NCBI GenBank assembly: GCA_032249095.1
Contig: JAVVGN010000036.1
Span: forward strand, 1 to 18,709
Direction: 5' to 3'
Length of the DNA: 18,709 bases
DNA from: Candidatus Caldarchaeales archaeon
Lineage (GTDB): Archaea > Thermoproteota > Nitrososphaeria_A > Caldarchaeales > Calditenuaceae
Part shown: one piece after another, positions 4,599 through 14,961 of the stretch
Position numbering within the stretch: the stretch's first letter is position 1
How the letters are laid out: each line of letters begins with the position of its first letter
Translations under genes and position numbers: made by a program
The notes under the pieces: model-generated
Told to the model about the DNA's origin: nothing
Databases searched by the model: none
Seen by the model: only the letters and a program-made list of their open reading frames with translations

Positions 4599-4623
4599 CG
4601 TGGCTTGTGGCAGAAGATTCCAG

Positions 4624-5037
4624 ATGTCAGAGGCTCAGCAGGCTGAGGCTAAGAGGGAGCTGTGGGGAATCATCCACATCTACTCCTCATACAACAACAT
4701 AATCATACACGCAACGGACATCACCGGAGCTGAGACCATCGCTATTGCGTCGGGCGGCATGTTCGTGGAGTCTGGGAGGCTGGAAGCCTCCTCCTACGCC
4801 GCGACTAGGGCAGCCAACTACGTGATGGAGGCCGTAAAGCAGAGGGGGATAACGGGCGTCCACATACGCGTTAGAGCACCCGGGGGCGTGAAGTCGAAGA
4901 CCCCGGGCCCTGGGACTCAGGCGGCTATAAGGGCCATAGCGCGGTCGGGGGTCATGATAGGTAGGATTGAAGACGTGACACCCCTACCGCACGACAGCGT
5001 GAGGAGGAAGGGAGGCCGCCGGGGGCGCAGAGTCTAG
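4624..5037 (+). CDS. rps11: 30S ribosomal protein S11 (uS11)
   Basis: The sequences [27 protein letters not shown] and the C-terminal [23 protein letters not shown] are hallmark uS11 sequence. Confidence 0.93.
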
Positions 5038-5519
5038 GCCGCTGGCTGGGGGATCACGAGGCCTATCTTGTCCTCCTCCTCCCTCTGAACCAAGTATCCG
5101 GGTGCCGAGACTATCCGCCCACCGACCTCTATCTTCTTATGAGTGATGAGCTGCCTTGCCTGGTGGATCGTCCTTGCAAGGCCCTTCCGGTAGACGATGG
5201 TCTGGAGCCTCCTCTCAAGAATATCCCTCACGGTGAGCTGTAAGACGTAGTTTGCGTCCGCGTCCTCAGGGACGAGCCCAATCCTGTAGAGCTTGTCGAT
5301 GAGGGCGCGCTCCCTCCTTCGCCTCTCCTCACCTGTGAGGACGAAGAGGTCCCTCGCAATCTTCCTATACTTCCTCAGGACTGAGGCTGCCCTCCAAAGC
5401 TCCCTCTTGTTACGTAACCCGTATTCGCCTACGAGTTGCAGCTCCTCCTTGAGCCTATCCTCCTGCCACGGGTGCCTCGGAGTCTCGTACTTCTTCCTCG
5501 GCCTCTTAGGATCTCCCAT
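5034..5519 (-). CDS. rps4: 30S ribosomal protein S4 (uS4)
   Basis: The N-terminus [23 protein letters not shown] is hallmark archaeal uS4, followed by an S4 RNA-binding domain ([25 protein letters not shown]). The gene is convergent with rps11, and the two stop codons share the tetranucleotide CTAG at 5034-5037. Confidence 0.93.
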
Positions 5520-5544
5520 ACGTCCGCTAGATCACGAACCCATT

Positions 5545-5553
5545 AATTTAAAA
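5545..5553 (-). promoter_or_regulatory. TATA-like box for the S4 gene
   Basis: The minus-strand motif TTTTAAATT lies about 26 nt upstream of the S4 ATG at 5519. Confidence 0.45.
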
Positions 5554-5918
5554 CTTTCACAGAACTCAGCCGTGTCTCCTTGACCAGGCCAGGGGAGGGT
5601 TTAAACTGGCAAGTGGGGGTAATTAGACACCAAGTCCAAAATAACGCTCCAACATCCAAAGATATATAAGACCTCAGGGAAACTAATACTACCAAGAGAA
5701 ATCGACTACATACTATCAAGCATTAAGGGCTTAGAGAAGGAGATAGGAGTAGTAAAGAATGAGAGGTCTAAACTAAAACACACTAGGCATAGAGCACGGA
5801 AACATACCAACAAAGCTAGAGCATGGGAAACGAGGTAATCTTAGGGGAAAAGGACAAACAACACTACATGGATACCCGAGGCCAGAAATATAATAATCCT
5901 TAATAGAGGGTCTATCGT
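5551..5918 (-). mobile_element. ORF-less copy of the repeat family whose full-length member lies at about 13.3-15.15 kb (candidate non-autonomous element)
   Basis: The reverse complement of 5655-5866 aligns by hand with 13315-13650 at roughly four-fifths identity. The alignment includes a 39-nt perfect block (5721-5759 against 13427-13465). Weaker colinear blocks match the right arm of the full copy: GGTGTCT at 5625-5631, AAACCCTCCCCT at 5591-5602, and CGGCT..AGTTCT.TGAAA at 5554-5572. The region is AT-rich compared with its surroundings and has no ORF. The outer boundaries are uncertain. Confidence 0.6.
5662..5670 (-). promoter_or_regulatory. Conserved near-palindromic TATA box inside the repeat (copy A)
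   Basis: The minus-strand CTTATATAT is the homologue of the TTTATATAT box at 13635-13643 in the full-length copy. It points toward rps4, but the TATATA core is symmetric, so direction is uncertain. Confidence 0.4.
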
Positions 5919-5930
5919 TAGTCGCTCGGC

Positions 5931-6629
5931 TTGCCCTATCAAATAAGGGTGGACGGTGAAGGGGAAGACTGGGTGCGGCTCGAGCTGGGAGATGTCCCAC
6001 ACTCCCTAGGGAACGCGCTCCGGCGGATGATCATCAACGAGGTCCCCACAATGGCCGTAGAGGAGGTGCTAGTTATTGAGAACACCTCCGTGATGACCCA
6101 TGAGGTCCTCGCCCATCGAATATCTCTGATACCCTTCACCACCGACCTCGAGAACTACGTTCTGCCCGAGGACTGTGACTGCGGGAGCCAGCTCGGCTGC
6201 CCGCGATGTAGCGTCAGGTACAGCCTCAGGAAATCCGCCAGCGGCGGGGTCGTCACTGTATACTCTTCAGACCTCCAGCTGGAGTCCGGCTCGGAGCGTG
6301 TGAGGCCAACAAGCGGGGAGTTCCCGCTGGTCAAGCTCGCTGATGGGCAGTCGGTCGAGCTCGAGCTCTATGTCCGGCTGGGTAAGGGTAAGAAGCATGC
6401 AAAATGGCAAGCGGGGTTGGCGACTTTTTATGAGGAGGGCGGCAAGAAGTTTTTATACGTCGAGTCGTTCGGCTTCCTGCCCCCACGAAGGATGGTCTTG
6501 GAAGCCGCTAAGATATTTGAGGAGATCGTCAGGAGACTTAATGATGACGTAGTAGCTTCTATTGGTGGTAGTCATGAGTGGGTCGGAGAAGAGCAGGGCG
6601 CTTCGCATCAAGGTTCGGAGGATGGCTAA
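5931..6629 (+). CDS. rpoD: DNA-directed RNA polymerase subunit D (Rpo3)
   Basis: The sequence LGNALRRMIINEVPTMAVEEVLVIENTSVM.HEVLAHRISLIP is the conserved RpoD/Rpb3 N-terminal dimerisation motif. An internal CDCGSQLGCPRCS cysteine cluster is also present. The start is TTG at 5931, about 26 nt downstream of a CTTAATA box, with GTG at 5949 as an alternative. Confidence 0.9.
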   Translation: MPYQIRVDGEGEDWVRLELGDVPHSLGNALRRMIINEVPTMAVEEVLVIENTSVMTHEVLAHRISLIPFTTDLENYVLPEDCDCGSQLGCPRCSVRYSLRKSASGGVVTVYSSDLQLESGSERVRPTSGEFPLVKLADGQSVELELYVRLGKGKKHAKWQAGLATFYEEGGKKFLYVESFGFLPPRRMVLEAAKIFEEIVRRLNDDVVASIGGSHEWVGEEQGASHQGSEDG

Positions 6630-13238: not shown

Positions 13239-13498
13239 GCTTTATCGCACCAAGAGACAGTTACGGTGGATAGATATTAAGTTGTCTAAATCAGTCTGGC
13301 CTTGGAAATCCGTATAGTGTTGTCTGTCCTTTTCCCCTAAATATTACCTCGTTTCCCCATAGGTCTAGCTGTATAGGTATGTTTCCATGTTCTAGTCCCA
13401 ATATATGTCTTAGTTTAGACCTTTCCTTCTTTACTACTCCTATCTCCTTCTCTAAGCCCTTAATGTTTGTTAGGGTGTGGTAGATTTCTCTTGGTAGT

Positions 13499-13623
13499 AT
13501 TGGTCCGATAGTGTCCCGATAAGGGGTTTAAATACCCTCAAGGATAGATGTTTTCCAGATTTAGCGGTTTACAACACCCCCTCTAGCCATATAAACCCCT
13601 TATCCGGACACTACCATTGGTCC
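13499..13623. mobile_element. Nested MITE: 109-bp body with 28-bp terminal inverted repeats and an 8-bp target-site duplication
   Basis: The direct repeat ATTGGTCC occurs at 13499-13506 and 13616-13623. The left terminus GATAGTGTCCCGATAAGGGGTTTAAATA (13507-13534) matches the reverse complement of 13588-13615 at 24 of 28 positions. The homologous site in copy A (about 5676-5690) is uninterrupted, so it represents the empty site. Confidence 0.8.
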
Positions 13624-13634
13624 CTTTTGAGGTC

Positions 13635-13643
13635 TTTATATAT
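13635..13643 (+). promoter_or_regulatory. Strong TATA box (TTTATATAT) at the inner end of the conserved left arm
   Basis: The motif is a consensus-like archaeal TATA box and is conserved in copy A. It lies about 45 nt upstream of ATG 13686 and about 115 nt upstream of ATG 13755. Confidence 0.5.
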
Positions 13644-13685
13644 CCTGGCAATGGTTCTCTTGAGTGTAGTGAGGCCAGTTTGGTG

Positions 13686-14072
13686 ATGTCCCGGTTGTTG
13701 GGGCCACTACTCCTTATATGTGGGGCCGGTGGTGGTTCTTATCCGAAACGGGTGATGAGGATGGGGTTGGTGGTGACTGATTCGGGGATCGAGGTTGCGG
13801 TGGGGAGGGTTGTGAGCATTACTCCGACTCCGGACGGGGTCGTGATTGTGCAGAACGAGTGGGATGGGGGGCTGAGGACTTGGATGATACCCTCCATCGC
13901 GACGCTGAGGTGGCTTATACATGAGGCCACTGCTGGAGAGACGCCGCCGAGAATCTACCACCTACCACCACTCAACTCGATAGTCCTAGAGAGGGAGCAG
14001 GTGGAGAGGTTCCACATAGTTGCGAGGCCATACGAGATAAAGGCTCGGAACGAGGGGGTGCATGGATGTTGA
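13686..14072 (+). CDS. Small hypothetical protein whose 3' end overlaps the recombinase-like gene start
   Basis: The ORF ends at TGA 14070-14072, which overlaps the downstream start (ATGTTGA). I recognise no family. The ORF-track start at 13617 lies upstream of the TATA box and inside the MITE duplication, so it is unlikely. Candidate starts are ATG 13686 (128 aa, hydrophobic N-terminus) and ATG 13755 or 13761 (about 105 aa). Confidence 0.5.
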   Translation: MSRLLGPLLLICGAGGGSYPKRVMRMGLVVTDSGIEVAVGRVVSITPTPDGVVIVQNEWDGGLRTWMIPSIATLRWLIHEATAGETPPRIYHLPPLNSIVLEREQVERFHIVARPYEIKARNEGVHGC

Positions 14073-14899
14073 AGTTCTACGCAGACGTTCACAGGACTAA
14101 GAAGAATGGCGAGGGCTTCAGGATAACATACACTACTGACGGAACGACTTTCAAGCATATAGACAGCTTCAGTGAGATCCCGGCAAGGCCCGGAGACAAG
14201 CTATTCATGGATACACTGCCACCCCAATACACGGACGGCGCGATAGAACTACTAAGGCGGGGAGTAGAGGTCTATTATCTCAGGAGACTCACATTACTTA
14301 AGAAGATGCGTAGGGAGCATAAGTTGCCGAAGAGCGCCAGGGGAGACATAAGGGCATTGATGAGTATTGAGGAGAGGTGGTTCAGGAGGGTTACTGGGGA
14401 CTTCCTAGTCTTGAGGAGGATGATATTGGCCTATAGGTCTCTATTGAAGACTCATCAGCAACTACTAAATAAATACAGGGCTTTGTCTGAGGCTGAGAGG
14501 GAGGTTCTGAAGCCAGCAATCTCCTCTATCGAAAAACAGTTGGAGGAGATGGCGAAAAAGATAGACGAGGAGGCTGGTAAGAGGTATCCGGCCTATAATG
14601 TGCTTCTTGAGGGGCTGGGGATAGATGATGGTTTGGCTGGCAGGGAGGCTCTGGCAGAGCTGCTAACGTATGCCGATTTCGTCAATAGTTCTCTGAGGGG
14701 TTTGAAGAAGCTTTTAGGACTCTATAAACCGACTAGCTCGTCTAGAAGGGAGTATTGGAGGCTATATGATGGTAGGCTTCATCGGGCTGTCACTAGGCTG
14801 GCGATGACATACTACAAGAATAGACCGAACGGGAGACAATGTTGGGAGCTGGTGAAAAAGATCAGGCAACTAGTGGTGACTGCTCAGGCACCGGGATAG
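14066..14899 (+). CDS. Compact (277 aa) IS110-family-like recombinase: DEDD RuvC-like N-domain, coiled coil, Transposase_20-like C-domain
   Basis: Motifs resemble IS110 transposases by memory-based comparison only. FYADVH (D7) resembles hGIDVxK. KLFMDT...YTDGAIELLRRGVEVYYL (D49) resembles vvmEaTG.Y...la..L...G..v.vv. KLPKSARGDIRAL resembles KTDriDAraL. A heptad-rich linker follows. LLEGLGIDDGLAGREALAELLTYADFVNSSLRGLKKLLGLYKPTSSS resembles LlsIPGIG...a..LlAeig...rF.....l..ylGL.P....SG. That this is a real gene is likely; the family assignment needs an HMM search. Confidence 0.55.
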   Translation: MLKFYADVHRTKKNGEGFRITYTTDGTTFKHIDSFSEIPARPGDKLFMDTLPPQYTDGAIELLRRGVEVYYLRRLTLLKKMRREHKLPKSARGDIRALMSIEERWFRRVTGDFLVLRRMILAYRSLLKTHQQLLNKYRALSEAEREVLKPAISSIEKQLEEMAKKIDEEAGKRYPAYNVLLEGLGIDDGLAGREALAELLTYADFVNSSLRGLKKLLGLYKPTSSSRREYWRLYDGRLHRAVTRLAMTYYKNRPNGRQCWELVKKIRQLVVTAQAPG

Positions 14900-14961
14900 G
14901 CCCCCGGCAGCGAGGGGGAAAACCCCACAACTATACACACCGGGGGCTTAAGGCTTTTAAT

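Follow-up and report, generated by a model that had tools for sequence, protein, structure and literature searches.

What is the AT-rich stretch that separates the divergent genes for ribosomal protein S4 and RNA polymerase subunit D (rpoD) in a hot-spring archaeon, and how did it come to lie there? The window, i.e. the whole stretch of 18,709 nucleotides that we analysed, is one contig of the genome of a "Candidatus Caldarchaeales archaeon", assembled from a metagenome (locus tags RQ862_). The G+C content of its S4-rpoD gap is 45%, as opposed to about 58% in the surroundings. A preliminary description had read the gap as a shortened, inverted copy of an element that starts at 13.3 kb of the same window. 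We propose that the odd stretch is very probably a 295-bp decayed remnant of a mobile element, devoid of genes and left behind by an ordinary kind of event.

The genes around both sites, as assigned by Pfam, are:

4600-5037, plus strand: S11
5034-5519, minus strand: S4
5931-6629, plus strand: rpoD, followed by L18e and L13
12882-13238, minus strand: prefoldin beta
13617-14072 (ORF1) and 14066-14899 (ORF2), plus strand: two open reading frames without family match
15184-15405, minus strand: L37ae; exosome genes are present as well

S4 is inverted between S11 and rpoD (4600-6629) and this arrangement is kept clade-wide (L079-L083, L086); the canonical order is S13-S4-S11-rpoD, with all genes co-oriented. 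Rfam 15 gave no match at gathering threshold in the entire window.

Filled and empty sites between S4 and rpoD

A sister lineage (L159-L163) was reached through members of the 90% S4 cluster; its nucleotide identity to the window amounts to 96.9% for S4 and 94.6% for rpoD. In the alignment, its spacers present an empty site, CTATTAAACCC, with a single TTAA. The filled site consists of CTATTAA, the 295 bp and TTAAACCC, with identical flanks in 12 loci. Read on the minus strand (the coding strand of S4), the sister spacer ...CCCTCTATTAAACCCTCCCCAGGCC...CAGCTGAGCTCTGTGAAAGTTTTAAATTAATGG... corresponds to CCCTCTATTAA, the 295 bp and TTAAACCCTCCCC... in the window. Relative to the empty site, a duplicated TTAA thus flanks the insert on either side, and a deletion normally would not leave exactly one TTAA. 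The boundaries are as follows:

5605-5899, minus strand: inserted element remnant, 295 bp; absent in the sister lineage, 98-100% identity in 12 same-species loci
5601-5604: TTAA copy distal to rpoD, duplicated target or recombination core, from empty versus filled site
5900-5903: gene-proximal TTAA copy, within the present rpoD TATA-like box TTAATAGA

In element orientation the insert reads 5´-GGATTATTATATTTCTGG...GGTGTCTAATTACCCCCACTTGCCAGT-3´, and its ends, GGATTATTA... and ...CTTGCCAGT, do not repeat each other in inverted form. The extent of 5551-5918 given in the preliminary description has to be narrowed to these 295 bp and the TTAA on each side.

The insert occupies the same flanks in all 12 same-species loci, namely ten with an identical S4 protein together with L002 and L003. 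In the closest species-level genomes (L079-L083, L086) S4 identity is 76-78%, and inverted S4 with divergent S4/rpoD is common to all of them. The spacer of L083 measures 90 bp and contains the same divergent promoter pair without the insert. L079 and L080 do not harbor the insert either; their spacers of 2-2.5 kb hold what look like membrane-protein genes, judging by hydrophobic sequence. A 274-aa ORF from these two spacers was considered as an ORF2 homologue and rejected, as it has no homology to the element by tblastn and its hydrophobic sequence looks like that of a multi-pass membrane protein. Because empty sites are found in the sister lineage and in more distant relatives, we regard the stretch as an insertion and not as a conserved spacer. 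The preliminary description, which had proposed this comparison of relatives, was right to distinguish the gap from ordinary spacer: the insert is absent from the sister lineage and from L083.

Composition of the insert

The element at 13.3 kb serves as the nearest reference for the insert. It comprises two features:

13276-15119, plus strand: large family copy, supported by same-species empty sites, a right end shared with L021, and tblastn
13507-13615: nested MITE of 109 bp; its ends are inverted over 25 nt (TAGTGTCCCGATAAGGGGTTTAAAT), and 8 bp, ATTGGTCC, are duplicated around it (13499-13506, 13616-13623)

The large copy is built of a 3´ remnant of a gene that we call ORF-X (13294-13506 and 13622-13663, minus strand), ORF1, ORF2 (14066-14899), a right-end RNA region (14897-15045) and, at 15049-15075, a conserved right-end motif that is extended to 15119. 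The right end of L021 matches it as far as ...TTAGTTCTTT and then passes into a different flank. The nested MITE breaks the ORF-X remnant; related MITE ends adjoin the left boundary in L027, L060, L074, L048 and L070.

The reverse complement of positions 5623-5894 is homologous to the left part of this element. Smith-Waterman alignment of the reverse complement of 5682-5886 with 13295-13504 covers 205 nt at about 85% identity (local score 251) and joins the arms that a repeat search reported separately (5682-5780/13406-13504, 99 nt, 90%; 5841-5886/13295-13340; others). Past the 109-bp nested MITE the homology picks up again at 13628-13644, equivalent to the reverse complement of 5661-5676, and the resumed score was reached in 0 of 300 shuffles. 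The inverted likeness reported in the preliminary description is thereby borne out, and so are its size estimate of about 0.3 kb, the lack of ORF1 and ORF2 (no homology to either was found in the 295 bp) and the common family with the 13.3-kb copy. Its terminus TAGTGTTGT was placed too early: the homology continues for some 25 nt beyond it, and the insert actually ends at 5899.

The left part turned out to be genic. The strand opposite ORF2 is an open frame across most left arms, and an intact ORF-X of 201-205 aa, its frame ending in ...GNIPIQLDLWGNEVIFRGKGQTTLYGYPRPD and a stop, is found in L049, L020, L052, L047 and L055. The "left arm" is the 3´ coding end of this element gene, whose stop codon, followed by a few bases, makes the "left boundary" seen throughout the family. 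What had been described as an arm up to a TATA box is thus coding sequence, with the claimed box representing codons G-Y-I-K-T. By tblastn, ORF-X protein (L020, L049) matches the small copy at 5656-5781 (frame +1) and 5783-5887 (frame +2) with E 6e-22; on the large copy, residues ~121-205 match 13663-13622 and 13506-13294 (89% identity, E 2e-40). A short form of ORF-X, as in L001, begins MAHHPRTYKT..., and in the small copy its ATG is replaced by ACG and frameshifting indels follow. The insert is accordingly made up of the left end, the last ~85 ORF-X codons (frameshifted and start-less), about 20 nt from upstream of ORF-X and 18 nt of other sequence, with ORF1, ORF2 and the right-end RNA missing:

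5605-5622, minus strand: putative vestigial right terminus TTACCCCCACTTGCCAGT, 18 nt; no homologue in any copy's left part; tentative
5623-5643, plus strand: remnant upstream of the short ORF-X form (TTAGACACC...), where L001/L054-type homology stops; 0 of 85 copies extend beyond 5623
5644-5893, plus strand: ORF-X C-terminal pseudogene; ATG changed to ACG at 5644-5646, frameshifting indels, stop TAA at 5891-5893
5894-5899, minus strand: left-end tail past the ORF-X stop; boundary from the empty site, similar GGATT(C)TAT.TTTCTGG tails in L056, L057 and L038

Hot-spring metagenomes yielded about 80 left-part copies. When JGI metagenomes were scanned for the conserved 23-mer TAGTGTTGTYTGTCCTTTTCCCC, 72 loci emerged, which together with other collected loci make 85 left-end occurrences. 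Among these, homology to the small copy always starts at ~5886-5904 and never goes past 5623. The copies that reach 5623 (L001, L014, L015, L043, L054, L059, L076, L065) go on into a conserved GC-rich segment, and the small copy departs from the L001/L054 type after GGTGTCTAA. It shares positions 5623-5660 with that type, a stretch that the neighbouring large copy does not have. By its sequence, then, the small copy is derived from an L001/L054-type variant and not from the neighbouring copy at 13.3 kb.

ORF-X has 94 homologue clusters. None of ORF-X, ORF1, ORF2 and the neighbouring element ORFs has a significant match in Pfam, NCBIfam, PHROGs or PDB sequences. The structure model of ORF-X is poor (pLDDT 59, below 50 in the C-terminal part kept in the small copy) and a structure search with it gave solely non-significant B3/pseudobarrel-like matches (E > 0.1). 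No conserved secondary structure was detected by RNAalifold in 30 left-arm copies on either strand (-3.2 and -4.7 kcal/mol, no covariation). With the empty Rfam search in addition, the idea that the left arm encodes a bridge RNA or another structured ncRNA was rejected. Integration into tRNA genes was discarded as well, since tRNAs are not systematically adjacent across 36 loci. A search for the element in viral contigs yielded no matches.

The opposite end of the insert is far less clear. The family right end reads ...CCAACCCCTCCCCCACTCTTTCC (15049-15071). A right-end profile (nhmmer) built from 20 right ends detects 15016-15074 (E 1e-16) and 18614-18669 (minus strand) in the window; relaxing the threshold to E<=1000 still brings no match in the S4-rpoD spacer. 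When 5520-5655 is aligned locally with the right arm, the best result is AGTTCTGTGAAA/AGTTCTTTGAAA, with a score reached by 164 of 300 shuffles for the long target and 43 of 300 for the short one. Local alignment, profile and motif search thus gave no support for a right arm in the spacer. The preliminary description had recognized three colinear right-arm blocks here. They stay at chance level without a profile match, and scored alignment leaves only the left-arm homology, an outcome that it had itself named as speaking against its reading. The supposed right-arm sequences have other origins: AAACCCTCCCC and CAGCTGAGCTCTGTGAAAG (the CGGCT..AGTTCT.TGAAA block) are native spacer, present in the empty site of relatives, and GGTGTCT continues the left-part homology, with GGTGTCTAA aligning to the left part of L001-type copies.

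What is left to consider are the 18 nt at 5605-5622. They have the 8-mer CCCCCACT in common with the family right-end motif. The 15-mer CTGGCAAGTGGGGGT, with adjoining TTAA and ACCC flank, is seen again in L040 (2162-2186) and L025, where the 18-nt end CCCCCACTTGCCAG(T) adjoins TTAAACCC too; the flanks are alike on both sides, CCTCATTAA...TTAAACCCC against CCTCTATTAA...TTAAACCCT. This suggests that 5605-5622 might be the vestigial right terminus of a subfamily. The small copy keeps its left end and at most this 18-nt right terminus. In L040 (2105-2290) and L025 a segment of ~180 nt sits in the left arm of another copy; its GGGGTTTAACGCTGGCAAGTGGGGGT is a 23/25 match to window positions 5597-5620, in opposite orientation relative to the left arm.

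Promoters at the site and origin of the insert

The target of the insertion is the TATA box of rpoD (GGGGAGGGTTTAATAGAGG; GGGGAGGGTTTAATAGAGGG on the plus strand). Entry took place at the TTAA inside this box, ancestrally GGGGAGGG-TTTAATAG-AGGG. Two spacer motifs are conserved among the relatives: AGAGAGCTTTAAATTAACGG precedes S4, and GGGAGAGTTTAATAC precedes rpoD at a distance of 33-34 nt, where TTTAATAC/G is found. In the window, the TATA-like box TTAATAGA (5900-5907) lies 31 nt upstream of the TTG start (5931). The sequence GGGAGRGTTTAA, kept upstream of rpoD in L079, L080 and L083, occurs once in the window (5593-5604; 0.00 expected by chance) and is directly joined to TAGAGGG in the empty site. 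Two promoter elements can be located:

5593-5604, plus strand: upstream half of the ancestral rpoD promoter, now displaced to ~325 nt from rpoD; consists of BRE-like GGGAGGG and TTTAA
5544-5553, minus strand: native S4 TATA box TTTAAATTAA, same in empty sites and conserved in L079-L083 and L086

Judged by the empty sites, the element, ~50 bp away, contributes nothing to the S4 TATA box. The preliminary description had the ends of the element abutting both TATA boxes, which holds for rpoD, where one end lies in the box, and not for S4. Nor does a terminal GTTTT add to the S4 box, identical as it is in the empty site. We suggest that the TTAA duplication rebuilds TTAATAGA at normal spacing (31 nt versus 32-34 nt ancestrally), so that rpoD expression would survive; likely because the gene-side TATA box is rebuilt in this way, the insert could become fixed despite splitting it. 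The old BRE with its half-TATA, ~300 bp upstream, may add a read-through transcript that would run in sense through the pseudogene into rpoD. The locus thus provides a base-exact, dated case of an element remnant that, although it broke up the TATA box in front of an essential RNA-polymerase operon of an archaeon, became fixed in the species. For the study of archaeal promoter architecture it amounts to a clean experiment of nature: BRE and TATA are 300 bp apart, and sister lineages from the same springs supply both filled and empty alleles.

How did the insert arise? With high confidence we consider 5605-5899 a protein-less, decayed remnant of an abundant element family of these hot-spring Caldarchaeales, to which the large copy at 13276-15119 belongs. 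It would be an internal-deletion derivative, either mobilised in trans as a short unit or inserted at full length with subsequent loss of the interior in place; the latter is at least as likely as the former. The 18 nt at 5605-5622 may then be the leftover of the right terminus, and the remnant is presumably immobile and non-functional as an element by now. Deletion forms in the family have breakpoints at 5795, 5784, 5733, 5724, 5661 and 5623. Short forms with both ends are known from L016 (~0.8 kb) and from L032, L061 and L066 (1.2-1.5 kb), and one deletion form, with ORF2 codon 92 joined at +86, has differing flanks in L016 as compared with L024/L031. The earlier idea of an internally deleted derivative is therefore reasonable for the family, of which deletion forms are typical; in the small copy the left end is kept, and the claimed right arm is native or left-part DNA.

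A rival reading, in line with the preliminary description, is an active, trans-mobilisable MITE-like element with both functional termini, inserted as a 295-bp unit by the family recombinase. The exact boundaries with TTAA on either side would be expected from it, the family does possess short two-ended derivatives and at least one deletion form at two different loci, and the 18-nt end recurs next to TTAAACCC in L040/L025, the other flank being alike as well. We nevertheless find it unlikely, because this form has no second copy among the 72 metagenome loci (its right junction is repeated in 0 of 85 left-end occurrences), the spacer lacks a right-end profile match, the blocks once assigned to the right arm are native DNA, and the insert bears marks of decay, with ~85% identity to other copies and indels.

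Two further explanations dispense with transposition into the gap. Position between two promoters, conservation of 98-100% across 12 strains and a purine-rich open frame on the plus strand might point to a conserved regulatory spacer or a small functional gene (sRNA or small protein) that was never inserted. Such conservation reflects only recent common descent, however, and the sequence is missing from the sister lineage and all more distant relatives examined (L083, L079, L080), belongs to no Rfam family, has no conserved fold, and compared with intact ORF-X has lost its start codon and has a broken frame, which makes this explanation highly improbable. Equally hard to believe is that local duplication, inversion or gene conversion produced the likeness to the 13.3-kb element, as two inverted copies 7.4 kb apart on one contig may seem to indicate. 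The small copy is closer in structure to the L001/L054 type than to its neighbour (5623-5660 shared), it is fixed whereas the large copy is polymorphic in the species, its TTAA duplication and exact boundaries fit insertion, and hundreds of family copies exist elsewhere. The decayed remnant of an inserted element thus stays our preferred reading.

The parent family and its likeness to known systems

Other copies show how variable the family is. The large copy is present in the window and in L182 and missing from L180, L181 and L183-185 of the same species, where L37ae and prefoldin are 104 bp apart with the spacer GGATGAAGGTTTTAATCTATCC. It sits in a TATA-like TTTTAATC upstream of prefoldin and its ORF-X end faces the gene, as at rpoD. 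No clean TTAA duplication is seen at the large copy against the same-species empty site; the copy replaces TA. A universal TTAA duplication in the family was therefore not upheld, and TTAA may not be a general rule. A third copy has its right end at 18614-18709 (minus strand), belongs to another subfamily (as L032, L061 and L066) and runs off the contig end; at this site in the sister lineage, SBDS is immediately preceded by proteasome alpha. In L001 (2200-3570), from the same MAG, ORF1 gives way to a GC-rich stretch of about 1.4 kb in which no gene is called; at least 8 loci conserve this stretch, whose many hairpins repeatedly show the loop motif CCGGTTCGG. A same-species contig, L004 (5863-7012), has been rearranged at a breakpoint that falls within the element: TusA, and not prefoldin, adjoins the ORF1-ORF2-L37ae side, and no left-end motif is present.

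ORF2 (276 aa) has 693 homologues in hot-spring metagenomes, at least 3 of them in this MAG, and no match in Pfam, NCBIfam or PHROG; at the sequence level, it matches neither PF01548 nor PF02371 nor any PDB sequence. Its AlphaFold2 model (pLDDT 82.5, pTM 0.78) gives full-length Foldseek matches to IS621, ISCro4 and TasR (E 2.5e-7 to 1e-5, TM ~0.6). About 150 nt after ORF2 (14897-15045) form the right-end RNA, whose conserved and highly stable consensus fold has -61.8 kcal/mol over 10 copies (z = -6.2); its stems are nearly invariant and covariation support is minimal (1 pair). Corresponding regions in other copies include, among others:

L001, 4403-4581: right-end RNA
L002, 10830-11008: right-end RNA
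L021, 4546-4724: right-end RNA

This RNA has two internal-loop arms that are hypervariable and terminate in UUUAAU or UAUAAU. The arms match flanks of their own copy in L002 (TGAAGGTTT, GATAGATTA) and L021 (AAAGCCTTAAG, GCTGCCTTA). Exact loop-flank matches of at least 9 nt occur in 7 of 36 cognate and 0 of 308 non-cognate comparisons (non-cognate maximum 8); the geometry of the matches is not uniform, as L002/L021 differ from L001/L012. None of 9 distinct right-end RNAs has a guide loop matching the rpoD target. We tentatively put forward, as a possibility less likely than not, that the parent family is an undescribed, sequence-orphan archaeal branch of IS110/IS1111-type RNA-guided recombinase elements. 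The RNA arms would specify TTAA-centred targets, often TATA boxes of genes, and the S4-rpoD insert would be a guide-less mini-derivative placed in trans.

Among known systems, the insert itself most readily invites comparison with archaeal MITE-like IS derivatives and solo remnants. Like these, it is short, lacks a transposase and comes from the end or ends of a longer element; it is a discrete insertion in a promoter, with a short duplication against the empty site, and related deletion forms of the family are multi-copy. It differs in that neither insert nor parent family has terminal inverted repeats, in being mostly a pseudogenised element gene and not non-coding arms, and in the single known copy of the 295-bp form with a putative right terminus of at most 18 nt. 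The 4-bp TTAA duplication at the small copy also recalls DDE transposons that target TTAA or YTAR (piggyBac; the IS5 group), which the family does not otherwise resemble: no DDE transposase domain was detected in the element ORFs, and terminal inverted repeats are missing.

For the parent family, the predicted ORF2 structure leads to two candidates. It matches TasR of TIGR-Tas systems (9mty, E 7e-6), with a RuvC-like N-terminal and a helical Nop-like domain in the model. Unlike TIGR-Tas, no tandem tigRNA array is seen beside ORF2, and the ORF2 gene is multi-copy with polymorphic insertion sites, i.e. it behaves as a mobile element. IS110/IS1111 recombinases combine a RuvC-like DEDD domain, a coiled coil and a Tnp/Nop-like domain; those of IS621 and ISCro4 are matched by the ORF2 model over its whole length, and the absence of inverted repeats is shared. 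ORF2 is shorter (276 aa) than its IS110/IS1111 counterparts and gave no sequence-level match to them, the apparent core is a palindromic 4 nt (TTAA) in place of a CT dinucleotide, and the parent has further genes in addition (ORF-X, ORF1) or else a GC-rich segment of 1.4 kb, with varying loop-flank geometry. Candidate points of agreement are the hypervariable loop arms, some matching their own flanks, and the core-like TTAA on both sides of the small copy. In IS1111-group elements the bridge RNA is located in the right end (PMC11208160), which the long, structured non-coding right end of the parent downstream of ORF2 resembles; its loop arms recall the bridge or seek RNAs of such elements. Vaysset et al. 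pointed out that databases may lack archaeal relatives that connect IS110 recombinases with Nop5 (bioRxiv 10.1101/2024.06.21.599552). If the IS110-like reading is true, a thermophilic archaeal lineage is added to the bridge-RNA recombinases. In any case the parent family deserves a study of its own.
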